DNA of 64,000 bases from contig CAWIPT010000007.1 of NCBI GenBank assembly GCA_963838125.1, forward strand, positions 1,060,237 to 1,124,236, given 5' to 3'. The stretch's first letter is position 1. Each line of letters opens with the position of its first letter. The translations under genes and the position numbers were made by a program. Below are positions 2,403-55,742 of this stretch, piece by piece. Origin of the DNA: an uncultured Chloroflexia bacterium. GTDB lineage: Bacteria > Chloroflexota > Limnocylindria > QHBO01. The notes beneath the pieces are model-generated. The model did not search any database. It was not told where the DNA came from and saw nothing but the letters and a program-made list of their open reading frames with translations.

Positions 2403-3672
2403 TCAGCGCATTGTAGTCGGCACGTCGTCCACCGCAACCCGATTCGCTCGGGCGGCCAGGACCTCGGTGTACAGGTCGGCAACCTCCGCGACGCGCCGCG
2501 CGGCATCGAAGCGCGACGCTCCCTCGGCGGCCCGCGCCGCCATCCGCTCCCGCCGGCGACGGTCGCCCAGGAGCTGGCCGATCTCCAGCGCCAGGCGCTC
2601 GGCCCGGGTGGTCGCCGGCTCCGCCGGGACGATCACGGCATCAACGCCCGGCCGGAGCGTCTCGGTCACCCCCGGCCCATCGACTGCCGCCACCGGCACT
2701 CCGGCCGCGAGAGCCTCGGCCAGGACCAGGCCCTGGGTCTCGGTCTGCGAGGCGAAGACGAACAGGTCGCAGGCCTTCACCAGGGACAGGGCCTCGTCCC
2801 GCGGCAGGCGGCCGGTGACGTGGACGCGATCTACCAGACCGGCGGATGCGGCGCGCCGGGCAACGTCCTCCTCGGCGGGGCCGCCACCCACCAGCAGGAG
2901 GCGGAGCTTCGGCCGTCGTCGGGCCGCGATGGCGAAAGCATCGACCAGGACGTCGACCGACTTCTCGGGTGCGACCCGGCCGAGGCTGACGAGGACAGTG
3001 TCCAGCCCGGGCCGCCAGCCGGCGAGTCGCCGGGGATGGCCCTCGGGCAGGACGGCGATGGCGGCCACGTCGACGCCGGTGGGGATAGCTCGAACCAGTG
3101 GCACCCGGCGTCGGCCGAGGGCCTCGCGGATCTCTGCTGCCAACGCCTCGGACGGCGCCACGATCGCGGCGCATCCGGCCCACCAGGCGGCCAGCCACGC
3201 CTCGGCCGCACGGCCCGAGACCGGAGCGAAGGGGCCCAGGTAATGGCCGTACTCCGCGAAACGCGTGTGGTGGGTGAACACGAGTGGGGCGCCCGCGCGA
3301 CGCGCCACCGCTCGCGCCATGAGGCCAGAGGTGAACGGCGAGTTGGCGTGCACAACGTCCGGCTCGAACGCCCGCGCCCGGCGGAGCGCGCGGGACAGGG
3401 TCGGAATGGGCGTGCGATAGCCCGGCGGCGCGGATGGGAGGTGGACCGATGGGAGCCAGGCGATCTCGGGGTCCGGGCCCGGGGCGCCGGCCACTCCGGG
3501 AGCGGCTCCCGCGCGCGGGACGCGGGACCACCAGCAGGACCTGGTGACCGAGGGCGCCAAGGCCACGGGCCAGGGTCTCGGTGGAAACGGTGACGCCCGA
3601 CAGATAGGGCAGGTACGTCTCGCCGAAGATGGCGACCCGGAGGGGGCGAAATGACCCGGACAACCTCGGCAT
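2403..3672 (-). CDS. glycosyltransferase family 4 (GT-B fold) with a frame discontinuity near 3475-3515
   Basis: The N-terminal GT4 segment (IFGETYLPYLSGVTV...LLVVPRP) is in the frame of ORF 2641..3672. The remainder (PDPEIAWLPSV...HANSPFTSG...ETQGLVLAEALAAGVPV) is in the frame of ORF 2403..3749. Confidence 0.75.
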
Positions 3673-3747
3673 TGTGACCCGGACCTCCTATGGCCTGTTG
3701 TGAAGGGGAGGTCTACACTCCGCCTTCGAGTTACGAGGAACCCGTCC

Positions 3748-4740
3748 ATGCCCGTTCAACCGTCCACGCGGCAGCTGACCGACGATCAGCTCCGCGATCT
3801 GCTCCGCCTGACGAAGGGATCGGACAGCGTCGAGCTGAAGCTGACCGTCCCGGCCTCCGGCCAGCGGTCCGCCATTCGCTCGGTCGGTATCGATCCGCTC
3901 GATGCCCAGATCAGACAGGTGTTCTTCTTCGATACGCCCGACCTGGTCCTGTACGAGGCGGGGCTGAACCTGCGCGCCAGACGGATGCAGGGCAAGGGCG
4001 AGGACTCGGTCGTCAAGATTCGGCCGGTCGAACCCGACCAGCTGGAGGCGGAATGGCGGCTGTCGCCGGCCATGAAAGTGGAGCTGGACGCGATGCCCGG
4101 CGGCTACGTGTGCTCCGCCTCACTGAAGGGCAAGCCCACCACCGGCGACACCCGCAAGGTCGCTCTCGGCGAGGAGCCCATCCGCCGCCTGTTCTCGAAG
4201 GAGCAGCGGGCATTCTTCAAGGCCCATGCGCCGGCCGGACTGACCCTCAGCGATCTCTCGGTTCTCGGACCCATCTTCGTACTGAAGCTCAACTTCACAC
4301 CCGACGGGTTCAACAAGCAGGTCACCGGTGAGATGTGGCTCTACCCCGACGGCCGCCGCCTGCTGGAGCTGTCCACCAAGTGCCCGCCGAGCGAGACCAT
4401 GCAGGCGGCCACCGAGTTCCGGCTGTTCCTCGGAGACCACGGAATCGACCTGAGCGGAACGCAGGAGACGAAGACGCGGAGTGCCCTCCAGTTCTTTGCC
4501 AAGGAGCTTCGACCCGCCGAGAAGGAGGTCCCCACCAACGGAGACGCCGACGCGTCCGACAACGGCGCGCCGGCGCCGCTCGAGGACGTATCAGGCGCGG
4601 TGACGGTGCCGGAAACCGTACTGGGGTCAGACCCGGAGGTCGTCCGGGAGCCAGGCGCTGGACCAGAAAACGGAGCCGAGCCGATGGCGGCGGTCAAGCC
4701 GTCGAGCGCGGAGCTGTCGGCCGACGCCGATCCGGACTGA
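3748..4740 (+). CDS. CYTH-like (triphosphate tunnel metalloenzyme family) domain protein with an acidic low-complexity C-terminal tail
   Basis: ATG at 3748 preceded by GAGGAA; ExExK-like motif VELKLTV near the N-terminus; RxR (LRARR) and KxK-like motifs; function inferred from motifs only. Confidence 0.55.
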   Translation: MPVQPSTRQLTDDQLRDLLRLTKGSDSVELKLTVPASGQRSAIRSVGIDPLDAQIRQVFFFDTPDLVLYEAGLNLRARRMQGKGEDSVVKIRPVEPDQLEAEWRLSPAMKVELDAMPGGYVCSASLKGKPTTGDTRKVALGEEPIRRLFSKEQRAFFKAHAPAGLTLSDLSVLGPIFVLKLNFTPDGFNKQVTGEMWLYPDGRRLLELSTKCPPSETMQAATEFRLFLGDHGIDLSGTQETKTRSALQFFAKELRPAEKEVPTNGDADASDNGAPAPLEDVSGAVTVPETVLGSDPEVVREPGAGPENGAEPMAAVKPSSAELSADADPD

Positions 4741-4746
4741 GCGAGG

Positions 4747-4823: not shown

Positions 4824-4880
4824 GACGCGGACAGAAAGTATAGCCACGGCGCTCCGAGGCGCCGGCAAATCCGGGCAGGT

Positions 4881-5132: not shown

Positions 5133-5172
5133 GCCCGCAGCATAGCGCGCTCGAAACCGGCGACCCGAGCGA

Positions 5173-5964: not shown

Positions 5965-7224
5965 TCAGTCCTGCTCGCGGTTCGGCTGGCGCAGGAAGCT
6001 GGGGATGTCAAGGTCGGTGTCGCCGTAGGCCGGTCGCTCGAGCGACGTCGGCCGGGTGGCCACCGGCTCGCGGTCCACGCTGCGGGAAACCTCCGCCGGC
6101 TCAGGCTCGGCCTCGGTCGACTCGGGGGCCGGAGTCACGGTGAAGGCCGTGCGCTCGATCCGCTCGCGCTCGATCTCGGCCAGCAGCTCGCGGCTCTTCT
6201 CGTCGAGCGACGTTTCGATCCCGCCGGCGGCCTCCGCCGCGGCCGGTCGAACAGCCGGCTTGGGGCGGCTGCGGGCGGCGTCGAAGCCGGTGGCGATGAC
6301 GGTGACCTTCACCTCGTCGCGCATCCGGTCATCGATGACCGTGCCGAAGATGATGTTGGCCTCCGGATCAGCGGCCTCCTTGATCACCTCGGCCGCCTCG
6401 TTGACCTCGAACAGGCCGAGATCGCTGCCGCCGGTGACGTTGAACAGGATGCCGCGCGCGCCCTGGATGTTGATCTCCAGCAGCGGGCTCATGACCGCGG
6501 CGCGCGCGGCCTCCACGGCCCGGTTCTCGCCGGACCCGATCCCGATCCCCATCATGCTGCTCCCAGCCTCGCGCATGATCGTCTTCACGTCCGCGAAGTC
6601 CAGGTTGATGAGGCCCGGCACGGTGATCAGGTCGCTGATGCCCTGCACGCCCTGGCGCAGGACGTCGTCCACCACTCGGAACGCGTCGAGGATGGAGGTC
6701 TTCTTGTCGACGACCTCGCGCAGGCGGTCGTTGGGGATGGTGATGAGGGTGTCGACCTTGTCCTTCAAGGTCTCGGTGTACTGCTCGGCCACGAGCTTCC
6801 GGCGAGCGCCCTCGAAGCTGAACGGCTTGGTGACCACGGCCACGGTCAGGGCGCCGAGGTCCTTGGCGATCTCGGCCACGACATGGGCGGCACCAGAGCC
6901 GGTCCCTCCGCCCATCCCGGCGGTGATGAAGATCATGTCGGCGTCCTTGAGCGCCTCGTAGATCTTCTCGGAGTCCTCCTCGGCGGCGCGCTGCCCGATA
7001 GCCGGGTCGGCGCCGGCCCCGAGGCCACGGGTCATCTTGTCGCCGATGCGGATCTTGTGCGGCGCATCACTCTGGAGCAGCGCCTGGGCATCGGTGTTCA
7101 CGGCAATGAACTCGACGCCCATCATTTCGGCCCGGATCATGCGGTTGACGGCGTTGCTGCCTCCACCACCGATGCCGATGACCTTGATCAGGGCGAAGTT
7201 CTCTGCGTCGGACCGGAGCGGCAT
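5965..7224 (-). CDS. ftsZ: cell division GTPase FtsZ
   Basis: [13 protein letters not shown], tubulin signature GGGTGSG, Asp/Glu-rich C-terminal linker. Confidence 0.97.
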
Positions 7225-7418
7225 GGGACATCTCCTGGGTGCGTGCGGCTATGACCGGGCACGGGAAGGGTCCGAACCCAGAGTGAATGGGCCTGTCGCT
7301 AGTCTACCGATCGGCCCTTTCGACGGAGAACCGGTCTGTCCACAACCTCGGCCGGAGTTGTCCACAACCTCGGGACCAATGGTGGATGGCCGTGCCCGCG
7401 CTCCACATTTCGACCCTA

Positions 7419-8657
7419 TCAGCCGGGGAACAGGTTCCGGAACCAGGTCCGCGCCCGGTTCACGCCGTCGCCGACCGGCGAGCGGGTGACGTAGCCGATC
7501 GGCTCCGCGCCCACGTGGCGGGCGCCCCACAGCAGCAGGCCGAGCGAGGTCGAGAATGCCGGGTTGGCGAGCTGGTCCATGAGTCCGCCCACGCCCTGTG
7601 GGGTGGCCACCCGGACCGGAAGCTCGAGCACGTCGCGTGCGAGCTCGGCGACGCCCGCCAGTCGCGCGCCACCGCCGGTCAGCACCAGGCCCGCCGGCAA
7701 CGGGCTGCCGTGCCCCGATCGCGCGACCTCCTCGCGGATGAGCTGATACAGCTCGCGCATGCGAGCCTCGATGATCTCGCTCAGCTTCCGGCGCTGGATG
7801 GTCTGTCCCCCGCCCTCGCCCATGACCGCCACATTGATCAGCTCCTCGGGCTGGACCTCGGCCACGTTCGACGTCCCGTGGCGGATCTTCACGTCCTCGG
7901 CCAGGTTCAGGCTGGTGCGCAGCCCGATCGCGACGTCGTTGGTGACGTGGATGCCGCCGACCGGGATCACCGCCGAGTGGTGGACGGCGCCGTCCACGAA
8001 AACCGCCATGTCGGTCGTGCCGCCGCCGATATCGGCCACGATCACGCCGAGCTCCTTCTCGGTATCGGTCAGGGTCGCCTCGGCTGCCGCCAGGGAGGCG
8101 ATGACCAGCTCGTCGATCTGGACCCCGGCCGAGCTGACGCACTTGCTCAGATTCTGGAGCGAGGTGCTCGCGCCAGCCACGATGTGGGTCTCGACCTCCA
8201 GCCGCACCGCGCTCATGCCGAGCGGGTCCTTGATTCCCTCCTGGCCATCCACGATGTAGCCGCGCGGGATGACGTGGAGGATCTCGCGGTTGGAGGGCAC
8301 CTGGACCGCGCGCGCGGCCTCGGTGGCGCGGGCAATGTCCTCCTTGGAGACCTCGCGGCGATGGCCGGAGACCGCCACCACGCCGCGACTGTTCTGGGAC
8401 GAGATGTGGCCCCCGCCAACCGAGACGAACGCCGAGCCGATCTTGTAGCCGGACAGCCGCTCGGCCTTCTCGATGCTGGTCGCGATCGACTGCACCGTCT
8501 GCTCGATGTTGGCGACCATCCCCTTCTTGATCCCGATCGAGGGGGCGATCCCATAGCCCACCACGTTCACGTCGCCGGCTGGCGTGACCTCGCCGATGAG
8601 GGTCGTCACCTTGGTGCTGCCGGGATCGATGCCCACCAGGACCGTTTCTCTGTCCAA
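7419..8657 (-). CDS. ftsA: cell division protein FtsA
   Basis: 412 aa actin-fold ATPase; VGIDPGSTKV N-terminus; immediately upstream of ftsZ. Confidence 0.95.
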   Translation of the reverse strand: MDRETVLVGIDPGSTKVTTLIGEVTPAGDVNVVGYGIAPSIGIKKGMVANIEQTVQSIATSIEKAERLSGYKIGSAFVSVGGGHISSQNSRGVVAVSGHRREVSKEDIARATEAARAVQVPSNREILHVIPRGYIVDGQEGIKDPLGMSAVRLEVETHIVAGASTSLQNLSKCVSSAGVQIDELVIASLAAAEATLTDTEKELGVIVADIGGGTTDMAVFVDGAVHHSAVIPVGGIHVTNDVAIGLRTSLNLAEDVKIRHGTSNVAEVQPEELINVAVMGEGGGQTIQRRKLSEIIEARMRELYQLIREEVARSGHGSPLPAGLVLTGGGARLAGVAELARDVLELPVRVATPQGVGGLMDQLANPAFSTSLGLLLWGARHVGAEPIGYVTRSPVGDGVNRARTWFRNLFPG

Positions 8658-8685
8658 ACTCAGCCTCCCTGGAGCGCGGCCGACC

Positions 8686-9009
8686 TTACAGGAAGTGGCG
8701 GCGGATCAATGCCACGTTCTGGAAGATGCGCAGGCCGAAGGCGATGAGGGCGACGAGGTAGAGGTCGATCCCGAGCCGGTCGCCGACGAAGGTGAGGACC
8801 ACCGCCACCGCGGTGTTCGCCACGAAGCCGCTGAGGAAGATGCGGTTGTCGTACTGGCCGTCCAGCTCGGCGCGGACCGCGCCGAGGATGGAGTCCAGGC
8901 CGGCCAGGATGGCCACGGCGCTGTACCGCGCGAGCTCGGGGCTCACGCTCACGTTCAGCAAGAGGCCCAGCAGGATGCCGAGCCCCAGGCCGACGAGGGG
9001 AAGCCACAT
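8686..9009 (-). CDS. sbp: small basic membrane protein Sbp-like (DUF1290 family), start placed at the internal Met
   Basis: about 108 aa starting MWLPLVGLGLGILLG; two hydrophobic segments; between ftsQ and ftsA as B. subtilis ylxX/sbp; ATG at 9009 avoids overlap with ftsQ. Confidence 0.6.
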   Translation of the reverse strand: MWLPLVGLGLGILLGLLLNVSVSPELARYSAVAILAGLDSILGAVRAELDGQYDNRIFLSGFVANTAVAVVLTFVGDRLGIDLYLVALIAFGLRIFQNVALIRRHFL

Positions 9010-9073
9010 CCGGAGGTTCGAGGACACCGTGCCTGGTCGGATTTCGGGCGGCGCCGCCGTTCGGCGAGCGGTC

Positions 9074-10018
9074 TCAGCCCCGGGCACGGAAATATACCCT
9101 TCCCGGATTCCGGGCATCGATCCACGCCACGCTCGCCTCCGGATGGGACGCGAACAGGGTCCGGATTCCGCTCGCCTGCGATGCGACCCGGGCGGCGACC
9201 GCGTCGTGCGTATCGGCCGGGTCGAGCCCGTAGTACCCGAGCGCCGCCTGCCAGCCGGCCTGCGGCGAGGAGAGGATGAACCCGTAGGTGCCGTCCAGGG
9301 AGATGGTCAGGAAGGCCGCCTGCGACCCAAGCCGGTCGGGTTCGAGTTCGGCCAGCAGGAGCGCGGCGTCCACCTCGGGGCCCGCGATCTGGTCGCCGAC
9401 CGACAGGTCGTGCGACGCCGGCCGCACGTCATCGATCACCGGCAGATCCGCGATCGAGCCCTCGCCCGTGGCATCCCGGGCCTGGATGCCGACCACCGTC
9501 CCGTCCTCGGCCACCAGCAGCCGGGCCGCATCGGTCAGCCAGACCGCGACCGCGTCGCCCTCGATCAGCGATACCTCGGCCCGGCCGAAGAGGCCGATGT
9601 CCACCGTGGCGCTCTCCACGCCGGGGAGCTCGGCCAGCTCCTCCGCCGTCGCCGCGGCGTCCACCGTCAGCGCGCTCCGGCCGAGCAGCGGGTTGGTCAC
9701 CCGGTCGAGATCCTCGCGCGCCGTCCAGTCAGCCCCCGCATAGGTGACGGCCCGAATCCGGAGCCAGGGGCCGGCCACCAGCCAGCCGGCGCCGGCCACC
9801 AGCACCAGGCACATGAGCACGGCGGTGATCCGCGTCCAGTTGAACCGCCGCCGACGGCGACGCGGGGTCATGGCCGGCGGTGGTGTCGCGCCACGCGCCG
9901 GTCGGCCGCGGCCGCGGACCCGGGAGGTGGGGCGACGCTCGGGGTCGGTCGAGGCGGCGCCCCGGCGCCGGGGGCGTCCCGTGGGCCGGGTCGGTTCGAA
10001 CAGGCGACCGTCGCTCAT
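9074..10018 (-). CDS. ftsQ: cell division protein FtsQ/DivIB
   Basis: Arg-rich cytoplasmic N-terminus, single TM (ITAVLMCLVLVAGAGWLVAG), POTRA-like periplasmic part; dcw position. Confidence 0.8.
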   Translation of the reverse strand: MSDGRLFEPTRPTGRPRRRGAASTDPERRPTSRVRGRGRPARGATPPPAMTPRRRRRRFNWTRITAVLMCLVLVAGAGWLVAGPWLRIRAVTYAGADWTAREDLDRVTNPLLGRSALTVDAAATAEELAELPGVESATVDIGLFGRAEVSLIEGDAVAVWLTDAARLLVAEDGTVVGIQARDATGEGSIADLPVIDDVRPASHDLSVGDQIAGPEVDAALLLAELEPDRLGSQAAFLTISLDGTYGFILSSPQAGWQAALGYYGLDPADTHDAVAARVASQASGIRTLFASHPEASVAWIDARNPGRVYFRARG

Positions 10019-11124
10019 GCCGGATCCTCCTCCTCGGCCAGGGCGATGAGGCGTGCGACCAGCTCCCCGAACCCGATGCCGGACAGCTCAGCCTGCTTGG
10101 GGAACATCGACGTCGCCGTGAAGCCCGGGATGGTGTTCATCTCGGAGATGTACGTCTCGTCCGGGACGGCCAGGAAGTCCACACGGGCCATGCCGCGCGC
10201 GTCGACCGCGCGGTAGGCGGCCAATGCCAGCTGCCTGAGGCGGTCGGCCAGGGTGGGCTCGACCTCGGCCCGCGGCACGACATCGGCCAGGCCGGGTACG
10301 TACTTCGCCTCGTAGTCGTACAGCTCGTGGTGGCTGACCACCTCGCCGGGCTCGAACACGGTGGGATCCTCGTTGCCCAGTACGCCGCATTCGAACTCGC
10401 GGGCCCCTTCGAGGTAGGCCTCGACGATGACCTTCGTGTCCCAGCGGAACGCCTCTTCGAGGGCGGCCGGCAGCTCGCCCGGGTCGTGGGCCAGGCTCAT
10501 GCCGACGCTGCTCCCCAGGCGGGCCGGCTTCACCACCGACCGCGGACCGATGCGGGCAACGACCTCTTCCACCACGCGCGCCGGCTCTTTCCGCCAGCGA
10601 CGACGACTGACCGATGTGTAGTCGACGACCGGCAGCCCATGACCACGCATGAGGTCCTTGAACACGACCTTGTCCATGGCCACCGCGCTGGAGAGCACGC
10701 CGGCCCCGGTGTACGGGATCCCGGCCAGTTCGAGGAAACCCTGGAGCGTCCCGTCCTCGCCGAACGGGCCATGGACGGCGAGGAAGGCGACATCGATGGC
10801 GTCCGCCAGGGTCCGGACCGCGGCGCGGGCCTGGACCGCGGTCGCTTCGGTTGTCACCGGGAGCGCGGCCTGGCCGGCGTCCAGTCGGGCGCTGTGCTCG
10901 GAGATGGTCTCGACCCCCAGCTGTGCGGCCAGGCTGTCGCTCGGACCCAGCACCGGGGCCGGTCCGGCGGGGAGGTGCCAGCCACCGGCGGCGTCGATGT
11001 AGATGAGGTACGGCTCGAACCGCTCGCGGTCGATCTCGCGCAGGATGGCCTCGGCCGATGCGATGCTGACCTCGTGCTCGGCCGACCGCCCGCCGGCGAA
11101 GATGCCGATCCGCCGTCGGGTCAT
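10015..11124 (-). CDS. ddl: D-alanine--D-alanine ligase
   Basis: ATP-grasp Ddl sequence (IGIFAGGRSAEHEVSI...); ATG at 11124 overlaps the murB stop (ATGA). Confidence 0.9.
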   Translation of the reverse strand: MTRRRIGIFAGGRSAEHEVSIASAEAILREIDRERFEPYLIYIDAAGGWHLPAGPAPVLGPSDSLAAQLGVETISEHSARLDAGQAALPVTTEATAVQARAAVRTLADAIDVAFLAVHGPFGEDGTLQGFLELAGIPYTGAGVLSSAVAMDKVVFKDLMRGHGLPVVDYTSVSRRRWRKEPARVVEEVVARIGPRSVVKPARLGSSVGMSLAHDPGELPAALEEAFRWDTKVIVEAYLEGAREFECGVLGNEDPTVFEPGEVVSHHELYDYEAKYVPGLADVVPRAEVEPTLADRLRQLALAAYRAVDARGMARVDFLAVPDETYISEMNTIPGFTATSMFPKQAELSGIGFGELVARLIALAEEEDPA

Positions 11125-12074
11125 GCGTCCGCCTCCCATGCGCCGACGAACTCGATCTCGTACTCCAGCTGGATTCCACTCGCGCCGTGGACAGCCGCCT
11201 GCACCTGGTCGGCGAGGCCGCGGACGTCGGCCGCGCGGCCGCCGCGTTCGGTCACGATGAAGTTCGCATGGCGGGTGCTGACCGAAGCCGTCCCGACCGC
11301 CAGGCCCTTGAGGCCGGCCGCCTCGATCAGCCGGCCGGCGTAATCGCCTGGTGGGTTGCGGAACACGCTGCCCGCGTTCTGCTCCGCGAGTGGCTGGGTG
11401 GCCGCGCGGTGTGCCTGGAAGGCATCAACCCGCGCAGCGACCGCATCGGGCTCATCTGGTTCGAGCTCCACGCTGGCGGCAACCACCACCAGCCGCTCAT
11501 GCTTGAAACGCGAGTCGCGGTATCCGAAGCGGCAGGCGTCGTTGGGGATGCCGGAAACCTCGCCGCTGGCGGGGTCCCAGGCCTCGGCGCTGACCAGGCG
11601 GTCCTTCATCTCACCGCCGTGGGCACCGGCGTTGGCCCACACCGCCCCGCCCAGCGTGCCGGGCACGGCGATCCCCCACTCCAGCCCGGCCAGGCCGGCG
11701 CCCGACGCCTGTTTCACGAGCATGGCCATCGGCGTTCCGGCGTCGGCGGACAGCCGGCGGCCCTCACGCCCGATGGTGCGGGCACGGTTGCGGATCACGA
11801 GTCCGCGCACGCCGGCGTCGGCCACGACCAGGTTGCTGCCGTTCCCGATGACCAGCCACGGAACGCCCGCGGCGCGCGCCGCCTCGAGCACGCCGACGAG
11901 CTCCTCGCGGCTGCGTGGCTCGGCCAGGCGGTCGGCGGATCCGCCGACCCGCAGGGTGGTCAGCGGTCCGAGCGGGACGTCGGCACGGAGGGCGAGGCCA
12001 CCCGCCGCGGCCAGCCGGTCGAGCTCCGCGAGGGCGGCCAGCACTCGGTCGGTCGCGTTCGGCGGGGCGCTCAC
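11121..12074 (-). CDS. murB: UDP-N-acetylenolpyruvoylglucosamine reductase
   Basis: MurB FAD-binding region (PLTTLRVGGSA, WLVIGNGSNLV). The true GTG start at 12074 overlaps the murG stop (GTGA). The upstream 244 codons of the ORF are read-through of the murG region in another frame. Confidence 0.9.
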   Translation of the reverse strand: MSAPPNATDRVLAALAELDRLAAAGGLALRADVPLGPLTTLRVGGSADRLAEPRSREELVGVLEAARAAGVPWLVIGNGSNLVVADAGVRGLVIRNRARTIGREGRRLSADAGTPMAMLVKQASGAGLAGLEWGIAVPGTLGGAVWANAGAHGGEMKDRLVSAEAWDPASGEVSGIPNDACRFGYRDSRFKHERLVVVAASVELEPDEPDAVAARVDAFQAHRAATQPLAEQNAGSVFRNPPGDYAGRLIEAAGLKGLAVGTASVSTRHANFIVTERGGRAADVRGLADQVQAAVHGASGIQLEYEIEFVGAWEADA

Positions 12075-13168
12075 GCCGCCTCCGCCAGCTCGAGCAGGGC
12101 GGTGGCAACGTCCCGGGCGGCGTCCGGGCGGCCGAGGTCTTTGGCCGCGGCGGCCATGGCCCGACGCGGGCCGTCTGCGCGAAAGGCGGCCAGCTCGCTC
12201 CGCAGCCGCTCGCCGGTGAGCTCGGCATCGGGCACGGCCACAGCCGCGCCGTGATCGGCCAGCCACTCGGCGTTCGCGGCCTGGTGGCCGTGGGCATACG
12301 GATAGGGCACCAGGATGGCGGCCACGCCGACCGCGGCCACCTCGGCGCATGTCGAAGACCCCGCCCGGCCCAGGACCGCATCGGCCGCCACCAGGGCGGA
12401 CGCCATCCGATCGGTCAGGAACGGCTCGGGCCGGTATCGGTCCCGGAGCCCGACCGGCAGTCGCTCGCGCGCCACCTCCGCCGCGGCCATGCCTGCCTCG
12501 CCGGCCAGGTGGAGCACGATCCAGTCCTCGACGAGTGCCGGCAGCGACTCCTCGAGGGCGAACGTGATCCGGGCCACGGCCTGCGACCCGCCGAAGACGA
12601 GGAGCAGCCGCTCGTCGTCCCCAACGTGCATCTCGTTCCGGGCAGCCGCCCGCTCGATCCCGGCAAAGGAGCGGATGGGCGTGCCGGACACGAACGCGCG
12701 CTGGCCGAATGCCTGGGCGGTGGGCGGGAAGGCGACCGCCACCCGGGTCGCCCAGCGGCCGATGGCGCGGGTCGCGCGGCCGGGAACGACGTTTCCTTCC
12801 CACACGATGCTCGGAATTCGCCGCGCGGCTGCCGCGGCGATGAGCGGGACCGCCAGGTAGCCACCGGTCGAGAAGATGGCCTCGGGTTCGAGCCGGCCGA
12901 GGAGGCGCCAGGCCTGGGGCGTCGCCGCGGTGAGGCGGAGCGGATCGAGGATGGTGTGGGCGCTCCGCCCGGCCGAGCGCAGGGATCGGACGGTCAGCTG
13001 GTGGTACGGCATCTCGCCGGCCTCCCCCACCAGCCGGCGCTCGAAGCCGCGGACACCGCCGACGTACGCGAGCTCAACCCCGGGACGCAGCTCGCGCAGG
13101 GCGTTGGCGACGGCCAGTGCGGGGTAGATGTGCCCGCCGGTCCCGCCGCCTGAAATCACCAAGCGCAT
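12071..13168 (-). CDS. murG: undecaprenyldiphospho-muramoylpentapeptide beta-N-acetylglucosaminyltransferase
   Basis: MRLVISGGGTGGHIYPALAVA N-terminus; ATG at 13168; overlaps the ftsW 3' end by about 95 nt. Confidence 0.9.
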   Translation of the reverse strand: MRLVISGGGTGGHIYPALAVANALRELRPGVELAYVGGVRGFERRLVGEAGEMPYHQLTVRSLRSAGRSAHTILDPLRLTAATPQAWRLLGRLEPEAIFSTGGYLAVPLIAAAAARRIPSIVWEGNVVPGRATRAIGRWATRVAVAFPPTAQAFGQRAFVSGTPIRSFAGIERAAARNEMHVGDDERLLLVFGGSQAVARITFALEESLPALVEDWIVLHLAGEAGMAAAEVARERLPVGLRDRYRPEPFLTDRMASALVAADAVLGRAGSSTCAEVAAVGVAAILVPYPYAHGHQAANAEWLADHGAAVAVPDAELTGERLRSELAAFRADGPRRAMAAAAKDLGRPDAARDVATALLELAEAA

Positions 13169-16749: not shown

Positions 16750-16751
16750 GG

Positions 16752-20012: not shown

Positions 20013-20046
20013 GGCAGCTCCGGGTCGCGCGCCGGGCGTGCGACGG

Positions 20047-20457: not shown

Positions 20458-20699
20458 CGTGTTCCAGGCCGCTCAGGCGGCCGCGGAGCGACCCTGCAGA
20501 CGCAGGGTCCACGCCGGTGCCGGCTCGTCCTCGACCGGCTCTGATTCAACGACGGGGCCTTGGTACGACCACGCCTCGTGCTCGCGCTCGGCGCGCGATC
20601 GCCGCTCACGAACCTCGCGCTGGCGGACGCTGTAGGCCCGACGGCGACTTCCCTGGTGCCGGGTGCGACCTCGACTCATGTGCCCAACCCTCCTGTGCT

Positions 20700-21653: not shown

Positions 21654-21745
21654 GCGTGACTGTCCCTCGAGGGTCCGGTGACGGGCCGAGCGGCCCGGAG
21701 ACGCATCAATGGCCCGGTCGTGACGTGCGTCATGGCGCCACGGGC

Positions 21746-40450: not shown

Positions 40451-40488
40451 ACCCTGACGCCGGGCGCCGGGCACGGGTTCCTGGACAT

Positions 40489-41409: not shown

Positions 41410-41551
41410 GGCTGGCCGATGGTAGCGCCGCGCCGGCAGCCTCCCGGCGTTTCCACGGCTCGGCTATTCCGGGTGTGTCGCGATCCACGGGTTGGACGGG
41501 CGGGCTGCGGCTCCGCCACGAGGACTAACGAGATCGAGTCTCAGATGATGT

Positions 41552-43387: not shown

Positions 43388-43591
43388 CGGGCGACGTCGT
43401 GGCAGGGGGCGTCGACGATGGTTGATGGTCTCCTCCTGGGTGGCGTGGCACGGGTGTGTTGGGCCCGGGTTTCGAGCCGGGAGGATGCGGGACGGGCTAC
43501 GGCCCCGTCAACCGGAGCCGCAGCCGCCGCCCGCTGAGGACCCGAGGCGTGTCCGGCACAATTGGCGGGTGGCGATGTGGAACCTTGACCT

Positions 43592-45247
43592 ATGAGGGCC
43601 GGCCGGATCGCTGTCGGGCTGGCGGCGACGCTCCTGGCCGCGGTGATGATTGCCATCCTCGCCGCCCGCTCAACGGACGCACCGGGTGCTGCGCTGCCCG
43701 CGCCGCGGTTCGTGGACGAGGCGGCTCCGGCCGGGATTGATCACCAGTACGACGGCGAATCTGACTTCTTCGTCGGCGGTGGCGTCGCCGCATTCGACTG
43801 CAACGGCGACGGACGGGACGAGCTCTACTTCGCCGGCGGCGAGCGGCGCGCAGCCCTGTACCGCAACGACAGCCCGCCCGGCGGCGCCCTTGCCTTCACC
43901 CACCTCCCCGACGACGAGACCGATCTCGAGCGCGTGACCGGTGCGTACCCGCTCGACATGGACAGCGACGGGAACCCCGATCTCGCCGTTCTCCGCCACG
44001 GCGCGAGCGTCCTTCTCCGTGGCCTGGGTGACTGCCGCTTTGAACGCGCGAACGAGGCCTGGGGATTCGACGGCGGCGATGCGTGGACCACGGCGTTCTC
44101 GGCGACGTGGGAGTCGACCAACGCATGGCCCACGATCGCCGTCGGCAACTATCTCGAGGAGTTCTCCGCCGACAGCGGGGCCCGCTGCTCCGACCACGAG
44201 TTGATCCGACCGGCGGATGACGGGTCTGGCTTCGGGACGAGCACGGTCCTCAGGCCGGGCTGGTGCGCGCTGTCCATGCTCTTCAGCGACTGGGATCGGT
44301 CAGGGCGGCGCGACCTGCGCGTCTCGAATGACCGCCACTACTACACCGACGCCAGCGATGGCGAGGAACAGCTGTGGCGAGTGGAGGCCGGCGAGGCTCC
44401 GCGTCTCTACACCGAGGACGAGGGCTGGCAGACCGTTCGGGTATGGGGCATGGGCATCGCCACTGCCGACCTGACCGGCGACGGGATGCCGGAGTACTAC
44501 CTCACCAGCCAGGGCGACAACAAGCTCCAGGTCCTGGCCGATGGGCCATCGGAGCCACGCTACCGAGATATCGCGCTCGAGAGTGGCGCCACCGCCAACC
44601 GGCCGTACGCCGGCGACCTCACCATGCCCTCCACCGCGTGGCACGCCCAGTTCGATGACGTGAACAACGATGGCTACCTCGACCTGTTCGTGAGCAAGGG
44701 CAACGTCGAGGCCATGCCTGACTACGCTGCCCGGGACCCGAGCAACCTGCTGCTGGGGCAGGCCGATGGGACGTTCGTCGAGGGAGCCGAGGCGGCGGGC
44801 ATCGTCAGCTACGCGCGGGCACGGGGCGCCGCCCTGGCCGACCTGAACCTGGACGGTCTTCTCGACCTGGTTGTGGTGAATCGGCGTGAGAACGTGCTCC
44901 TGTGGCGCAATGTCGGCGCCGGCGATGCCGCCGAGCCTGAGCCGATGGGCCACTGGATCGCGATCCGTCTCGAGCAGCCGGCGCCCAACTCGGATGCCAT
45001 CGGCGCGTGGATCGAGGTGCGAACCGGCGAGCGCACGGCCGCGCGCGAGGTCACGATGGGCGGCGGCCACGTCGGGGGGCAGCTGGGCTGGATCCATGCT
45101 GGCCTCGGCGGCCAGGACCGTGCCGAGGTCCGGATCCAGTGGCCGGACGGCGAGATCGGTCCGTGGATGCCGGTGACCGCCGACCAGTTTGTCGTGCTGG
45201 AACGGGGCGCCACCGCGGCTCGTATGTGGGCCCCAGAGGCGGACTGA
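43592..45247 (+). CDS. CRTAC1-family protein: FG-GAP/VCBS repeats plus C-terminal ASPIC/UnbV domain
   Basis: N-terminal signal anchor; repeated D-x-D/N-x-DG calcium-binding-like loops (DMDSDGNPDL, DLTGDGMPE, DDVNNDGYLDL, DLNLDGLLDL); C-terminal GGGHVGGQLGWIHAGLG...VRIQWPDG. Confidence 0.75.
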   Translation: MRAGRIAVGLAATLLAAVMIAILAARSTDAPGAALPAPRFVDEAAPAGIDHQYDGESDFFVGGGVAAFDCNGDGRDELYFAGGERRAALYRNDSPPGGALAFTHLPDDETDLERVTGAYPLDMDSDGNPDLAVLRHGASVLLRGLGDCRFERANEAWGFDGGDAWTTAFSATWESTNAWPTIAVGNYLEEFSADSGARCSDHELIRPADDGSGFGTSTVLRPGWCALSMLFSDWDRSGRRDLRVSNDRHYYTDASDGEEQLWRVEAGEAPRLYTEDEGWQTVRVWGMGIATADLTGDGMPEYYLTSQGDNKLQVLADGPSEPRYRDIALESGATANRPYAGDLTMPSTAWHAQFDDVNNDGYLDLFVSKGNVEAMPDYAARDPSNLLLGQADGTFVEGAEAAGIVSYARARGAALADLNLDGLLDLVVVNRRENVLLWRNVGAGDAAEPEPMGHWIAIRLEQPAPNSDAIGAWIEVRTGERTAAREVTMGGGHVGGQLGWIHAGLGGQDRAEVRIQWPDGEIGPWMPVTADQFVVLERGATAARMWAPEAD

Positions 45248-45266
45248 GGCCGGCGGCGTCCGCTGC

Positions 45267-46526
45267 CTAGGCCGGCTCGGCGGCCTCCGCCCGCTCGATC
45301 GGATCCGATGGAGCGTTCTCGCGGCGGGCCAGGATCGAGAAGGGAACGACCGCGACGCTGATCACGCCGGCGATGACGTAGGACGTCGCATAGCCGTAGA
45401 CGTCGGCTGCGCGCCCGAGCAGTGGCTGGGCCACCACTCCCCCGGCGGATCCCATGAGCGCATCAAACGACAGGACCGTCGCTCGCTGCTCGGACGGGAT
45501 GATGCCGTTGATGAACGCCTGATGCATAGGCGCGGAGAAAGCGAATGCGATGGACCAGGCGGCGAGGAGGCCGAGGGCCACGATGAAGCTCGTCGACAGA
45601 CCGAGGAGGACGAGGATGATGGCCGACAGCGCGCCGGTCAGGATCAAAGCGTCGGTGCGGCGGCGGAAGAAGCGCCGGAACCAGGGAACCAGCGCCCCGC
45701 CCACGATCTGTGCGCCGGCCACAAACGCCGCCGCCAGCCCCGCGATGCCGTAGGCGTTGGGATCCCCGTACAGCTCGAGCAGGTAGGGCTGCATGGCGTA
45801 GAAGGCGTAGATGCCGACCCCGGCGCTGAACGGTGAGGCGAGCATCAGCCAGCGGACCGGCGGATTGCGCAGTCCGCCTTCCACCGCACCACTGACGACG
45901 GTCCGAACGGCGCCGATGGCACTCACGCCACGTTGCGGGGAGAAGCCGATGTCGCGCATGAACAGGAACGCGACGACCAGGGTCACCCCGAGCATGGCGG
46001 CCCGGATGATGTAGGGCACGCCGAGGTTGGTCAGCTGGGCGACGACGCCGCCCAGGACGGATCCAGCCAGCATGGCGCCGCCGGCCACCACCTGGGCGCG
46101 GGCGAACACGGACTCCAGGTCGCCGGTGAAATCCGACGCGTGGAGCGCGTCCACCAGCCAGGCCTGCGTGGCGCCCGAGAAGAACGTGAACCCAAGCCCG
46201 AGCAGCGCCGAGGCGATGGCCCATCCCCAGAACGGCGCCTCGATGCTCCACATGAGCAGGTACAGGAGGGTCGAGACGAGGAGGGTGAATGCCCCGAGGA
46301 GGAACGAGAATCGTCGCCCGCGGGTGTCGGCCACGACGCCGGTTGGCACCTCGAAGATGACCTGGCCCAGGGTGAAGGCCGCGTTGGCCGCGAACGCCTC
46401 GGTGTTGCTGAGGCCCGCGTCGAGCAGGAACAGGGTATTGATCCCCCAGATGAACGACGCGGCGAGCGTGGTCAGGAGGGTCAGAACCAGGAAGACGCGC
46501 TGCACGACGCGTGCCTGATCGGTCAC
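45267..46526 (-). CDS. MFS transporter
   Basis: 419 aa, about 12 TM segments; MFS motif region GVVADTRGRR. Confidence 0.85.
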   Translation of the reverse strand: MTDQARVVQRVFLVLTLLTTLAASFIWGINTLFLLDAGLSNTEAFAANAAFTLGQVIFEVPTGVVADTRGRRFSFLLGAFTLLVSTLLYLLMWSIEAPFWGWAIASALLGLGFTFFSGATQAWLVDALHASDFTGDLESVFARAQVVAGGAMLAGSVLGGVVAQLTNLGVPYIIRAAMLGVTLVVAFLFMRDIGFSPQRGVSAIGAVRTVVSGAVEGGLRNPPVRWLMLASPFSAGVGIYAFYAMQPYLLELYGDPNAYGIAGLAAAFVAGAQIVGGALVPWFRRFFRRRTDALILTGALSAIILVLLGLSTSFIVALGLLAAWSIAFAFSAPMHQAFINGIIPSEQRATVLSFDALMGSAGGVVAQPLLGRAADVYGYATSYVIAGVISVAVVPFSILARRENAPSDPIERAEAAEPA

Positions 46527-46666
46527 CGCGACACGGTACCCGGTTGAAACGACGGATGCGCCTGGACCCTCGTCCCGCTCCCGAAATTGTCATCCTGCCG
46601 AGTCGGTCGCGATCGATTTTCGCGGCGCGGTTTGAGCGCACGCCGCCCATGGCTTAGCGTTGCCTG

Positions 46667-47137
46667 GTGAGCCGGGAAGCCGAGGATCTGAATCGACGTC
46701 TCCTGCGCGCCCGTGACGCCATGGACCGCGCATACGCCGAGCGGCTCGACGTCCGGGCCGTGGCCGCGGTGGCACACGTCTCGCAGGCGCATTTCATCCG
46801 CAGCTTCCGCGCGGTCTTCGGAGAGACGCCGCACCGCTACCTGCAGCGCCGCAGGGTGGAGCGGTCGATGTTCCTGCTCCGTGAGACCGACCGCGCCGTC
46901 ACCGACATCTGCTTCGACGTGGGCTTTAACAGCCTGGGCACATTCAGCCGCACGTTCCGGGACATCGTGGGCGAGGCGCCGTCGGGCTACCGTAAGGGAC
47001 ACGGGCCGATGGTCGCGCCCAACTGTTTCCAAATGGCGGGAACCCGACCGTGGGCCGCGCCCCGCCGATCCCCACGGGTCGCGACGCAATCGAGCAGTTT
47101 CGGAGAAGCGGCCGAGCCCGCGGCTGCCGTAGCGTGA
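46667..47137 (+). CDS. AraC-family transcriptional regulator (HTH-only, SoxS/Rob-like size)
   Basis: two HTH_AraC units; divergent from the MFS transporter. Confidence 0.8.
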   Translation: MSREAEDLNRRLLRARDAMDRAYAERLDVRAVAAVAHVSQAHFIRSFRAVFGETPHRYLQRRRVERSMFLLRETDRAVTDICFDVGFNSLGTFSRTFRDIVGEAPSGYRKGHGPMVAPNCFQMAGTRPWAAPRRSPRVATQSSSFGEAAEPAAAVA

Positions 47138-47170
47138 CCGAAACCCCAATAGACCTCACAGGAGACCGAC

Positions 47171-47644
47171 ATGGCTGAGAAGCGGACAGCGACCAAGGCG
47201 GCGAAAAAGCCGACCAAGCGCACCAATGACGCGACCACGAAATGGACGGACGAAGAAATCGCTGCGATGCAGGAGCACGCGAAGGAACTGAAGGCAGCCA
47301 AGGGCGGCAAGTCAGACGGCGAGAGCGACCTGCTCGCGAAGATCGCCGAGATGCCGAACTCGGATCGGGTCATGGCCGAGCAGATCCATGCGCTGGTCAA
47401 GGCCAACGCCCCGGATCTCGAGCCAAGGACCTGGTACGGGATGCCCGCGTACAGCAAGGACGGCAAGGTCCTCTGCTTCTTCACACCCGCCGCCAAGTTC
47501 AAGGAGCGCTACGCGACGTTCGGCTTCAACGCCACGGCGAATCTGGACGAAGGCGAGATGTGGCCGACGTCCTGGGCGCTGAGGAAGCTGACCCCGGCCG
47601 ACGAGGCGAAGATCGCCGAGCTCGTGAAGAAGGCGGTGATCTGA
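47171..47644 (+). CDS. DUF1801 (YdhG-like) domain protein
   Basis: Lys-rich N-terminus then a conserved YdhG-like core ([17 protein letters not shown]). Confidence 0.7.
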
Positions 47645-48093
47645 TGACGACGAAGCTCGCCGTCACCTCGGTCAAGGTCCTCGACCAGGAGGAGGCGCTC
47701 GACTTCTACGTCAACAAGCTCGGGCTCGAGAAGGCCCAGGACATCAAACAGGGACCGTTCCGCTGGCTGACGGTTCGCTTTCCCGACAACCCCGACGTCG
47801 AGATCTTCCTGGAGGAGCCGGGCCCGCCCGTCCACGACGAAGCCACCGCCGCGCAGTTGCGCGAGCTGATCACCAAGGGGGCCATGGGCTCGCTCGTCTT
47901 CTACACGGACGACGCTCGCGGTCTGTACGAGACCCTTATGGAGCGTGGCGTCACCGACTTCACCCAGGAGCCCATCGAGCACGGCTACGGCACCGACATG
48001 GGCATCCGCGACCCATTCGGCAACGCGATCCGGATCCTCCAGCCGGCGAAGGCCATCCGGGAGGCGAAGACCGCCCCCTCAGCGACGGCCTGA
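47644..48093 (+). CDS. VOC family (glyoxalase / bleomycin resistance fold) protein
   Basis: 149 aa from ATG 47644 (TGATG overlap with the preceding gene); VOC beta-alpha-beta-beta-beta modules. Confidence 0.75.
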   Translation: MTTKLAVTSVKVLDQEEALDFYVNKLGLEKAQDIKQGPFRWLTVRFPDNPDVEIFLEEPGPPVHDEATAAQLRELITKGAMGSLVFYTDDARGLYETLMERGVTDFTQEPIEHGYGTDMGIRDPFGNAIRILQPAKAIREAKTAPSATA

Positions 48094-48108
48094 CCGATCC
48101 TGCCGAGA

Positions 48109-50466
<2,358 letters not shown>

Positions 50467-50546
50467 GGCGAGGTCGCTCGATCAGGAAACGAGGTAAAGG
50501 AGATCATCACGACTCACCTAACCATCACCGCGGCGGTCGGTACCCG

Positions 50547-51170
50547 ATGAACGCCCCCGCCCCAGTCACGATCACGCCAGTCTTCGTTGCCGACTTGCAC
50601 GTCGAGGGCGAGCGGATGCCGGTCTACGTGCACGTCATCGATCTTCCCGATGCTCGCGTGCTGGTCGACACCGGCATGACGGAGCTGCACCCCTGGCTGG
50701 CCGACATGGATCCCCGCCTCCGGCCACTGAGCGAGCAGGACTTCGATCTCGCCGGCATCGACATCGTCGTCAACACGCACCTTCACGGCGACCACTGCGG
50801 CGGCAACCACCTCTTCGCCGGCAAGCCGATCTACGTCCAGCGTCGGGAGCTCGACGACGCGCGCAGCGAGGACGACTACACCATTCGCGAGTGGGTCGAC
50901 GCGCCCGGCGTGCGGTACGTGCCGGTCGACGGCGAGCTGGAGCTGCTTCCCGGGCTCCGACTCGTCCCGGCGCCGGGCCACACCCGCGGCACGCAGGTGG
51001 TCGTCGTCGAGACTGGCGAGCGTCCGGTCGTCATCGGCGGCGACATGGCGGTGTGGTTCGGCGAGCTCGACGAGCCGCACACCGAAGGCCAGCTACTGGT
51101 GCGTGCGCTCGACCCCGAGCTGGTCTGGCTCGCGCACGAGCACGAGCCGTGGCGACCCCGCACTGGCTAA
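50547..51170 (+). CDS. MBL-fold metallo-hydrolase (lactonase-like)
   Basis: from ATG 50547 (MNAPAPVTITPVF); HxHxDH motif HLHGDHCGG. Confidence 0.8.
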   Translation: MNAPAPVTITPVFVADLHVEGERMPVYVHVIDLPDARVLVDTGMTELHPWLADMDPRLRPLSEQDFDLAGIDIVVNTHLHGDHCGGNHLFAGKPIYVQRRELDDARSEDDYTIREWVDAPGVRYVPVDGELELLPGLRLVPAPGHTRGTQVVVVETGERPVVIGGDMAVWFGELDEPHTEGQLLVRALDPELVWLAHEHEPWRPRTG

Positions 51171-51223
51171 TGCATCACGCCTGCTAGAAGTGAGACCGAT
51201 CAGGGTCGGACGCAGTAGGTGAG

Positions 51224-51687: not shown

Positions 51688-53923
<2,236 letters not shown>

Positions 53924-53926
53924 CGG

Positions 53927-55742
53927 TCAGGATCCTCCTCGAGCCGGCACGGCCGGCGTCATCAGCAGCTTGGTGACCTCGGCCTTCTCGCGGCCGAGCT
54001 GGGTGATGTGCGTTTCAATTTGTTCGAGCAGCTCGCGGTCGCCGTCGCGTCCGGCATCCTCGAGCAGGTACCGCCCATCGCCGATCGCTTCCTCGATCCG
54101 CGCCTGGCGGAGTCGCAGTCGGCACACGCGAAGGGCATCGGCGGCCACCGCTGGGTCCAGCCGAGGCTGCGAGCCGGCGGCTTGGATGGCGGTGCGCGCC
54201 AGGTCGGCGGAGATCGGGTCGAGATCCGTCAGGAAGCCATCGACCTCCACCTGGCCGTTGTCCGACCGTGCGACCCAGGCCGCCCAGCCCTCGGCCAGGG
54301 CAGCCGCCTCCGGTCTCCCGAAGGGCAGCGGATTGGCGTCCAGGCCCGCAGTCAGTGCCAGGATGGCGGAACAGGAGCGCCAGGGTCTCGGTCTCCACCG
54401 GGTGAAGCGCCGGCGTTCCGGGCCCGACCGGCTCCCCCGGCGGTACGGCCTGTCGCTGGACACGCGGTCGGGCCAGGCCCTCCCGCAGGATTCGTTCGTC
54501 GACCTGGACGATGCGCGACAGCTCCTGGACGTAGAGGTCCTGGACGACCGCATCGGTCACCCGCTGGAGCTTGGCCAGGACGCGGCCCGCCATCTCACGG
54601 CGGCCTCCGACCGTGTTCAGGTCGACGCGCGCCGCCTCTCGCTCCATGAAGTAATCGATCAGCGGCTTCGCGTTGTCGATCGCCTCACGCCAGGCTCCAG
54701 GATCGGTTTGGAGCAGCTCGGCCGGGTCCTTGCCGGCGGGGATCCGAATGACGCGCAGCTTGGTGACATTCTGACTAGGACCGAGCTCGTCGAGCAGTCC
54801 CCGTTCGGTGGCGGCCTCGCCGGCCAGGTCGACGTCGTAGGCGAGGGTGATGGCATCGGCGTAGCGAGTGACGATCTCCACCTGGCCGCGCGTCAGCGCC
54901 GTCCCCATGGAGGCGACCACGTTCGTGAAGCCGGCCTGGTGAGCGGCCATGACGTCGGTGTAGCCCTCGACGATGACGGCCAGCTTCTCGCGCCGGATGG
55001 CGGTTCTCGCGAGATCGATGCCGTAGAGCGTGCGGCTCTTATCGAACAGAGCGGTAGCCGGCGAGTTGAGGTACTTGGGGCCCTCGCCATCCGGCATCAC
55101 CCGACCGCCAAGGCCGGTGGGCTTTCCGGTCGCGTCGCGGATGGGAATGATGATCCGGCGGCGGAATCGGTCCACCGGTCGTCCTCGCTGGCCCATGCTG
55201 GACAATCCGGCGGAGATCATCTCCTCGGACGAGAAGCCCCGCGATGCCAGGCGTGTGGCGAGGGCATCCCAGCTGTCGGGCGCGAAGCCGATGCCGAACT
55301 GCTCCAGCGTCTCCTCGGTGAAGCCACGCTCGGCGAGATACCGGCGGGCAGGCTCCGCCTGGTTGGCCTGCCGGAGCACATCGCGATACCAGCCGATGGC
55401 GGCCTCGAGCGCGTCACGCAGCCGCTTTCGGCGGCGGTCTTCCCGCGCACCGGCTGCGGACAGCTCCACCCCGGCGCGCTCGGCCAGGCGACCGAGGGCC
55501 TCGCGGAAGTCGATGCCGTCCCGCTTCATGACGAAGGTGAAGATGTCTCCGTGCTCTCCGCAACCGAAGCAGTGCCACGACTCCCGCTCGGGGCTCACCG
55601 TGAACGAGGGTGTCTTCTCACCGTGGAACGGGCACAGGCCCTTCCACGTGGATCCGGCCTTCTTCAGGACGACCGTCTCGCCCACGATCTCGGCGACGGG
55701 CAGGCGCGACTTGATCTCGGCGACCGAGCCGGGTGAGCTCAT
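53927..55742 (-). CDS. dnaG: DNA primase DnaG with a frame discontinuity near 54380-54390
   Basis: Zinc-binding CPFHGEKTPSF...CFGCG, TOPRIM (AVIVEGYTDV). The C-terminal helicase-binding domain is in the frame of ORF 53927..54553. Junction is LALLF / AILALTAG at ttccgcc. Confidence 0.9.

Follow-up and report, generated by a model that had tools for sequence, protein, structure and literature searches.

Single-nucleotide indels in seven conserved genes of a Limnocylindria-like Chloroflexota contig are most likely uncorrected errors of a long-read assembly

Ten single-nucleotide indels, six insertions and four deletions, break seven minus-strand genes in the analysed window, a 64,000-nucleotide stretch of DNA labelled W in the alignments; the genes encode a GT4 glycosyltransferase, FtsI, a Cys-rich membrane protein, PccB, a VHPO-like protein, SigA and DnaG. 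The indels are private to this contig, except for the GT4 base that also occurs in the related contig L082, and one-base edits restore conserved full-length proteins. Judging from the sequence comparisons, they are very probably uncorrected consensus errors of a long-read assembly, the genes of the organism itself most likely being intact. The initial annotation had likewise proposed assembly indels in place of pseudogenes, and the private nature of the events, the restoring edits, the dN/dS values and the lesions of sister contigs bear this out. All nine frame switches that it listed are present within about 30 nt or less of their predicted positions, as evident from split Pfam domains and two-frame homologue alignments. 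Its count was one short, since the Cys-rich gene is shifted a second time, at 22447, where no event had been listed, which brings the total to ten events in seven genes, and the density of about one per 7 kb is recounted as about one per 6.4 kb of the window. The affected genes do include, as had been pointed out, ftsI, dnaG and sigA, which are normally essential and single-copy. The window has a G+C content of 70% and derives from a Limnocylindria-like member of the Chloroflexota rather than from the Actinobacteria.

In the GT4 gene (about 2403-3672) the shift, predicted at 3475-3515, is due to one extra base at 3511 (coding strand CGCGCG[C]GGGAGCC). The Pfam Glyco_transf_4 domain matches HMM positions 2-57 in one frame and 33-169 in another, and with the base removed the N-terminus is colinear with the 422-aa protein of L083. 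In a four-way alignment the base is absent from L083 and L081 and present in the error-prone L082, in which a deletion about 40 nt further downstream compensates for it. The ftsI gene (18200-20012) carries one extra G at 18633 (coding strand CGGCCGGC[G]CGACGAGG) that is private to the window versus L083, L081 and L082, and its Transpeptidase HMM match changes frame between positions 3-191 and positions 201-284. The corrected FtsI has 604 residues, the same as in L083, and the conserved motif noted after the shift is found as KTG at residue 501. The shift had been placed at about 18645 in a C5/G5 run; the shift is real, but the site reads GGC[G]CGA and lies 8 nt from the C5 run, outside of it. 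As the old frame remains open after the shift and enters the frame of murE, a false FtsI-MurE-like fusion ORF of 1086 aa results (16752-20012, minus strand), whose Pfam domains are PBP_dimer, a Transpeptidase cut short (3-191 of 299) and Mur_ligase N, M and C.

The gene for the Cys-rich membrane protein (22375-23310) has one extra base at 22447 (plus strand GGATGAC[G]GAACAGG), private to the window versus the JGI contig L086 and L084, and lacks one base in a Pro/Ser-rich linker at 22749-22750, where the exact site is ambiguous within about 22740-22754; the tblastn frame switch falls at 22749/50, in agreement with the predicted 22750. The frame in which the L086 protein aligns to the window changes between residues 189-288 and residues 289-311, and adding a base at 22749/50 and dropping that at 22447 yields 311 aa, equal to the L086 homologue. 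Six apparent private indels in this gene proved to be mostly insertions common to L081 and L082, and versus the JGI reference only two events are uncompensated. In the pccB/accD-type carboxyltransferase gene (34973-36524) the shift predicted at about 35805 is refined to one extra base at 35790 (coding strand CTCGGC[A]TATCTGCCG). The Carboxyl_trans HMM is matched at 1-221 and 216-493 in two frames, the homologues from L004 and L084 align over two frames of the window, and in alignment A3 the site reads GGC-TATCTG in L004 and GG-GTACCTG in L084.

The VHPO-like gene (41552-43387; DUF6851 and VCPO_2nd), earlier described as PAP2/haloperoxidase with switches at about 42425 and 42560, is missing an A at 42432 (coding strand GAGAACG[-]AACGCTT, with GAAAC in L172) and has one extra base at 42586-42588 (GCCGCC[G]ATCGAGG), as resolved by alignments in which the deletion is private to the window versus L089, L090 and L172 and the insertion versus three relatives. 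The 51 codons between the two events are out of frame, and this middle segment matches its homologues, at 80% amino acid identity, in the other frame only. The sigA gene (51688-53923), for which two switches had been predicted within 53585-53615, lacks one base at 53609 (GGCTTCC[-]CCAAGCC) in its Ala/Lys/Pro-rich N-terminal extension, where L172 and L085 have a G, and a second at 53590-53592 (about 53591, AAGGCC[-]CTGCC; position within a few nt), seen in alignment A2, where L172 stays in frame over the same stretch. A single +1 event was dropped in favour of two deletions on account of the L172 alignment and of the AKPAAKA motif of SigA homologues, which is obtained only with the two-deletion reading. 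The JGI homologues read ...GASVKAAAKPAAKT... in frame and have 734-753 residues, versus 745 in the corrected SigA. Finally, in dnaG (53927-55742) the switch predicted at about 54385 is one extra G at 54359 (coding strand CCATCCT[G]GCACTGAC), private to the window versus L172, L085 and two JGI contigs in alignment A1. DnaG homologues align over two frames that meet at 54345-54360, and the corrected protein has 604 residues, equal to the L172 gene call.

High-GC DNA yields long overlapping ORFs, of which the window holds 245 of at least 100 aa, and the 'intact 322-aa' call for the Cys-rich gene in L084 is indeed a wrong-frame ORF. That spurious ORFs simulated the discontinuities is nevertheless hardly conceivable. 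Single Pfam domains are divided between frames in ftsI, pccB and GT4, the homologues of relatives align over two frames in dnaG, pccB, the Cys-rich gene, VHPO/PAP2 and sigA, HMM coordinates and homologue alignments pass seamlessly from one frame to the other at each site, and the individual extra or missing bases are visible in nucleotide alignments.

The window was compared with short-read contigs (L083, L086 and L090 from JGI, L089 from ENA, L091 and L095), an Illumina MAG (L004) and long-read-style contigs (L081/84/85, L082 and L172). Every covered gene is intact in four short-read contigs with 83-90% nucleotide identity to the window, an identity at which even the closest short-read references represent a different strain; dnaG, sigA and part of pccB are covered by a more distant JGI contig and the Illumina MAG. 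The short-read contigs of relatives cover the same genes over about 37 kb and contain no coding frameshifts there, none of the short-read assemblies carries any of the ten events, and versus L086, L090 and L089 the uncompensated coding indels of the window are the listed ones only. Nine of the ten events are also missing from all aligned long-read relatives, the exception being GT4 3511 in L082, and the dnaG, sigA, pccB and VHPO indels are found in none of the aligned relatives. Among the frameshifted ORF products, P0027 and P0031 are confined to this contig.

The long-read sister contigs have private single-nucleotide indels of their own, about 1-2 per kb and mostly non-homopolymer as well, which within the 18 kb compared break mraW, murB, ddl, sucC, sdhA and others. 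In the four-way alignment of these 18 kb, private 1-nt insertions number 1 in the window and 1 in L083, versus 18 in L081 and 36 in L082, and the gene calls of the sister contigs are heavily fragmented at positions other than those of the window. These contigs have Flye-style names and neighbouring ENA analysis accessions (ERZ25039469, ERZ25039531, ERZ25039536), and a related MAG, L002, bears the label MFD; the MFD catalogue (Microflora Danica long-read MAGs) is reported to have been produced by Nanopore-only Flye assembly with one round of Medaka (PMC12313526).

A likely course of events would start from the long contig (1,363,430 bp) of this metagenome-assembled Limnocylindria-like Chloroflexota genome, in which a noisy long-read consensus of the Flye/Medaka type, unpolished by short reads, may have left about 1.6 single-base indels per 10 kb. 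Each would throw the frame and thereby generate truncated ORFs, the false FtsI-MurE fusion and ORFs with scrambled internal segments. Such long-read-only metagenome assemblies (Flye and Medaka, unpolished by short reads; PMC12313526) resemble the window in that 1-nt indels fragment or fuse conserved ORFs, in lesions private to a single assembly, in the denser lesions of sister contigs from apparently the same submission series, and in the Flye-style contig names and the MFD label of L002. The window differs in that its events are mostly non-homopolymer and are clustered instead of uniform.

Indels in homopolymers are the classic Nanopore and 454 signature, typical of this class of artefact although not required. 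The homopolymer flavour suggested by the initial annotation does not hold, since eight of the ten events are away from any run of four or more; only two lie within 14 nt of such a run, and one event is a contraction of A3 to A2. No common sequence or methylation motif was seen among the ten site contexts. In three pairs the two events are no more than 310 nt apart (uniform model, P=0.006), and given this clustering the errors may be concentrated where coverage is low or strains are heterogeneous. The clustering, the non-classic contexts, the frame-restoring pairs in the VHPO-like and Cys-rich genes and the references of only 83-90% identity count against an artefact, and such pairs are also expected under selection on real compensated frameshifts.

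The same clustering, together with the restoration of the downstream frame by the +1/-1 pairs (VHPO 42588/42432, Cys-rich 22750/22447) in two genes that are not obviously essential, would fit genuine, very recent frameshift mutations, either nascent pseudogenes or compensated pairs. This appears unlikely for some or all of the indels, as the essential ftsI, dnaG and sigA would lose, respectively, the KTG motif, the DnaB-binding C-terminus and the whole sigma core relative to the start, and the conserved sequence of the scrambled middle segments is still encoded, at 64-80% identity, in the other frame. The indels occur in no other assembly save the GT4 base in L082, and sister long-read contigs bear like lesions, far denser and elsewhere. 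Narrower still is the chance that the VHPO-like and Cys-rich pairs are real, recently fixed compensated frameshifts, which would leave both proteins with a scrambled stretch in their interior, or that the lineage tolerates or decodes frameshifted essential genes.

The restored proteins likewise speak for consensus errors. As the initial annotation had anticipated, 1-nt edits give continuous products, FtsI of 604, DnaG of 604, the Cys-rich protein of 311, the VHPO-like protein of 611 and SigA of 745 aa, colinear with their counterparts in relatives and with zero internal stops, and a single-base edit also repairs PccB and the N-terminus of GT4. Purifying selection downstream of the shifts is not relaxed: dN/dS there is 0.10-0.32 versus 0.03-0.21 in intact neighbouring controls, which the two short middle segments exceed slightly (VHPO middle segment, 0.18-0.32), and the upstream and downstream values are 0.077 and 0.144 in FtsI, 0.149 and 0.149 in DnaG, and 0.044 and 0.107 in PccB. 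Neither relaxed dN/dS nor stops in the corrected frames, the hallmarks of pseudogenes, were found in these genes. Pseudogenes of reductive genomes such as that of Mycobacterium leprae share with the window frameshifts in recognisable genes, but here accumulated stops and multiple lesions in the correct frames are lacking, selection is unrelaxed, essential genes are hit, and neighbours and relatives are intact.

Both halves of the broken genes being intact and conserved in different frames also recalls programmed frameshifting as in prfB (+1), dnaX (-1) and the IS3-family transposases, by which, or by transcriptional slippage, full-length proteins would be made from the sequence as written. Such recoding is exceedingly improbable for ten sites in seven unrelated genes with shifts in both directions and no common slippery motif. 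In every relative, including those 94-97% identical, one frame suffices at these positions for the same proteins, and the conservation that marks known programmed sites is thus lacking; the window contains no slippery heptamer or stimulatory element at the shifts, and a site and slippery motif conserved in relatives were not found, all of them being in frame.

Several further candidates were discarded. The 15538 site in murD agrees with JGI L083; 33483/33528 and 34746 in accC are errors of L084, the frame of the window being self-consistent and the Pfam domains complete; 56097-56187 and 56879 are errors of L085, with distant homologues aligning to the window in a single frame; at 47620 a DUF1801 gene and a glyoxalase gene genuinely adjoin; and 5373/5377 and 5432/5450 are compensated within 4-18 nt. 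A codon-usage/GC3 change-point scan was too insensitive as a survey, recovering only ftsI and VHPO, and its plus-strand hits were antisense artefacts. Positions 1-3082, 33.3-35.3 kb, 46.5-51.7 kb and 55.8-61.8 kb, which have no clean short-read reference, were judged by whether Pfam domains are complete, by the lengths of ORFs and by error-prone relatives, and may thus harbour a further silent error.

Taken at face value, the ORFs would mis-call about 12% of the genes in the window (7 of roughly 58), with products that include the spurious 1086-aa fusion of FtsI and MurE, a DnaG whose C-terminus is incorrect, a haloperoxidase-like protein containing 52 nonsense residues and a SigA without its N-terminal extension; two of the artefact products, P0027 and P0031, are already public as ordinary proteins. 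If the indels are, as appears very probable, uncorrected assembly errors, the gene calls in the window need frame correction, and for any unusual ORF, fusion, truncation or pseudogene on this contig, and more so on the sister contigs, consensus error should be excluded first. The biological interest of the indels is low, and their practical importance for annotation is high.

Same-strand phase changes are seen in GC3 frame plots within ftsI, the GT4 gene, pccB, the PAP2/vanadium-haloperoxidase-like (VHPO) gene and dnaG, and Pfam domains are split over two frames in ftsI (Transpeptidase, HMM 3-191 and 201-284), pccB (Carboxyl_trans, 1-221 and 216-493) and GT4 (Glyco_transf_4, 2-57 and 33-169). 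At the remaining sites, the proteins of relatives each need two frames to align with the window. The aligned DnaG proteins of loci L002, L003 and L095 place the dnaG switch at 54345-54360, the PccB proteins of L004 and L084 place that of pccB at 35788-35790, the 311-aa Cys-rich membrane protein of JGI locus L086 aligns in three segments, and the 51 codons in the middle of the VHPO-like gene match homologues, at 80% identity, in an alternative frame only. Indel positions were set by multiple nucleotide alignments of the window with close relatives; all affected genes lie on the minus strand, and contexts are given on the coding strand unless marked. Single bases are inserted in GT4 at 3511 (CGCGCG[C]GGG), ftsI at 18633 (GGC[G]CGA), the Cys-rich gene at 22447 (GATGAC[G]GAAC on the plus strand), pccB at 35790 (GGC[A]TATCTG), VHPO at 42586-88 (GCCGCC[G]ATC) and dnaG at 54359 (ATCCT[G]GCAC), and single bases are missing from the Pro/Ser-rich linker of the Cys-rich gene at 22749/50, from VHPO at 42432 (GAAAC to GAAC) and from sigA at about 53591 (AAGGCC[-]CTGCC) and at 53609 (GCTTCC[-]CCAAG). 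All nine frame switches listed in the initial annotation are present in these alignments, no more than 30 nt from where it had placed them; a tenth event, at 22447, had been missed.

The short-read references were JGI loci L083, L086 and L090, all from sample 3300082511, and ENA locus L089, with nucleotide identities of 83-90%. Against these, no further uncompensated coding indels were found in 3082-33317 and 40331-46542, while about 14 kb of the window lacking a clean reference were checked only for complete Pfam domains and for ORF length. Other candidate frameshifts were dismissed, being explained by comparison with relatives or as true gene boundaries.

Changing one base per event yields proteins free of internal stops. 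The corrected FtsI (604 aa) equals that of L083 and retains its KTG motif at residue 501, downstream of the indel; DnaG (604 aa) equals the gene call of L172 and the Cys-rich protein (311 aa) that of L086, the VHPO-like protein has 611 aa and SigA (51688-53923, minus strand) 745 aa, and GT4 gains an N-terminus colinear with the L083 protein of 422 aa. In all relatives these proteins are encoded in a single frame, and the ten contexts have no motif in common, which for practical purposes excludes programmed frameshifting. By pairwise Nei-Gojobori comparison with clean relatives, dN/dS upstream and downstream of the shift is 0.077 and 0.144 in FtsI, 0.149 and 0.149 in DnaG, and 0.044 and 0.107 in PccB; it is 0.10 downstream in GT4, 0.18-0.32 in the middle segment of VHPO, and 0.25 in the middle and 0.29 upstream in the Cys-rich gene, with 0.03-0.21 in 11 intact control genes. 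Since the values after the shifts are about as low as those before, drift is absent from the out-of-frame parts, and the lesions, if they are not artefacts, are extremely recent. Real inactivation is implausible because ftsI, dnaG and sigA, as had been pointed out, are normally essential and would each lose indispensable parts.

Related long-read-style contigs carry similar damage elsewhere. These are contig_4325 of ERZ25039469 (L081, L084, L085; 94-97% identical to the window), contig_35503 of ERZ25039536 (L082; 86%) and contig_82209 of ERZ25039531 (L172; 90-94%). Over the same 18 kb, the window and L083 have one private 1-nt insertion each, L081 has 18 and L082 has 36, and the gene calls of the latter two are shattered at many sites other than those of the window, including in mraW, murB, ddl, sucC, sdhA, PPDK and glycyl-tRNA synthetase. 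L172 lacks both VHPO indels of the window and has an insertion of its own, 50 nt upstream of the VHPO site affected in the window. The names of the sister contigs follow the Flye style, their ENA analysis accessions are neighbours, and L002, a further relative, carries a Microflora Danica MAG label. That catalogue is Nanopore-only, assembled with Flye and polished by one Medaka round, and its authors concede Nanopore-associated errors at low coverage (PMC12313526). The window probably derives from data of this type. Together with the one-base restoration, the dN/dS values and the essential genes affected, comparison with relatives supports the original reading of assembly indels rather than pseudogenes, and the ten indels would represent consensus error, not a biological feature.

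The homopolymer context initially proposed does not hold, as a run of at least four lies within 14 nt of just two of the ten indels and 8 nt separate the ftsI insertion from the C5 run to which it had been assigned; of the insertions private to the sister contigs, most (13 of 18 and 28 of 36) are likewise non-homopolymer. The indels are clustered, with three pairs spaced by 29, 156 and 306 nt (P=0.006 under uniform placement), and in two of the three pairs the frame is regained. Such grouping is consistent with a consensus that is poor in places, owing to coverage dips or strain bubbles. Of the features observed, it alone would also be predicted by real compensated frameshifts, and that explanation of the frame-restoring pairs is retained for this reason, albeit as a very improbable one. 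Four further 1-nt insertions, at 22502, 22547, 22563 and 22676, all within 180 nt, are common to L081 and L082 when scored relative to the window and the JGI contig (L081 being 97% and L082 86% identical to the window), which suggests a systematic error tied to the sequence context, or else an artefact of alignment.

SigA homologues of 734-753 aa begin with (V/M)ALKTPTR and carry an in-frame Ala/Lys/Pro-rich extension with the text ...GASVKAAAKPAAK..., which in the window is spread over three frames. In the corrected primary sigma factor this histone-H1-like N-terminal extension spans about 150 aa (weak Pfam HC2 match), regions 1.2 and 2 lie about 185 aa apart, and region 3 carries an insert, an architecture common to hundreds of homologues of 690-790 aa. 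A 15-nt repeat, GCTGCGAAGCCCACG, occurs in three copies near 53800-53845 and differs in copy number from L085. The Cys-rich gene (22375-23310, minus strand) encodes a conserved 311-aa protein directly upstream of mraZ, as also in L086, L084 and L082, with four cysteines (CPFLG...HRCYAFG...NVCLQRGYANCPRYLRG), a linker rich in proline, a single predicted membrane helix and, at the C-terminus, a conserved domain of some 120 aa; even its frame-corrected sequence matches nothing in Pfam. An apparently intact 322-aa call for it in L084 (2563-3531, minus strand) was rejected as a wrong-frame ORF of high-GC DNA (MATCRTLQRRICP...), and ORF length alone is therefore misleading at 70% G+C.

Among species-representative genomes, those closest by DnaG are Chloroflexota MAGs (64-69% amino acid identity), followed by Candidatus Limnocylindrales (51%), and homologues of the VHPO-like gene carry the name Candidatus Limnocylindria. 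These matches make the host a Limnocylindria-like member of the Chloroflexota and not an actinobacterium, as hinted at by the gene vocabulary of the initial annotation. Colinearity with contig_4325 (L085) is lost in the block at 47100-51200, which contains DUF1801, glyoxalase and metallo-beta-lactamase-fold genes and one for a UvrA-like double ABC ATPase of 785 aa; identity in L172 is only about 77% there, versus 90-97% in the flanks. The block looks like a segment that varies or has been exchanged.

The 64-kb window has a G+C content of about 70% and many long, overlapping ORFs. The longest of them across ftsI, of 1086 aa at 16752-20012, falsely joins FtsI to MurE. The division and cell-wall cluster (5965-22195, minus strand), laid out identically in the intact L083 contig, contains one Mur ligase only (MurE-like, 482 aa, between ftsI and mraY), lacks murF and murC, and has a DUF1290 gene between ftsQ and ftsA. 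In the public collection, proteins of the window are found on a single contig, of 1,363,430 bp. The frameshifted DnaG (P0027, 54015-55742, 575 aa) and VHPO (P0031, 41552-43387, 611 aa) ORFs are already public as ordinary proteins, P0031 forming a cluster by itself and P0027 being clustered otherwise with fragments. ORF calls in the window are to be read with frameshift-aware tools.
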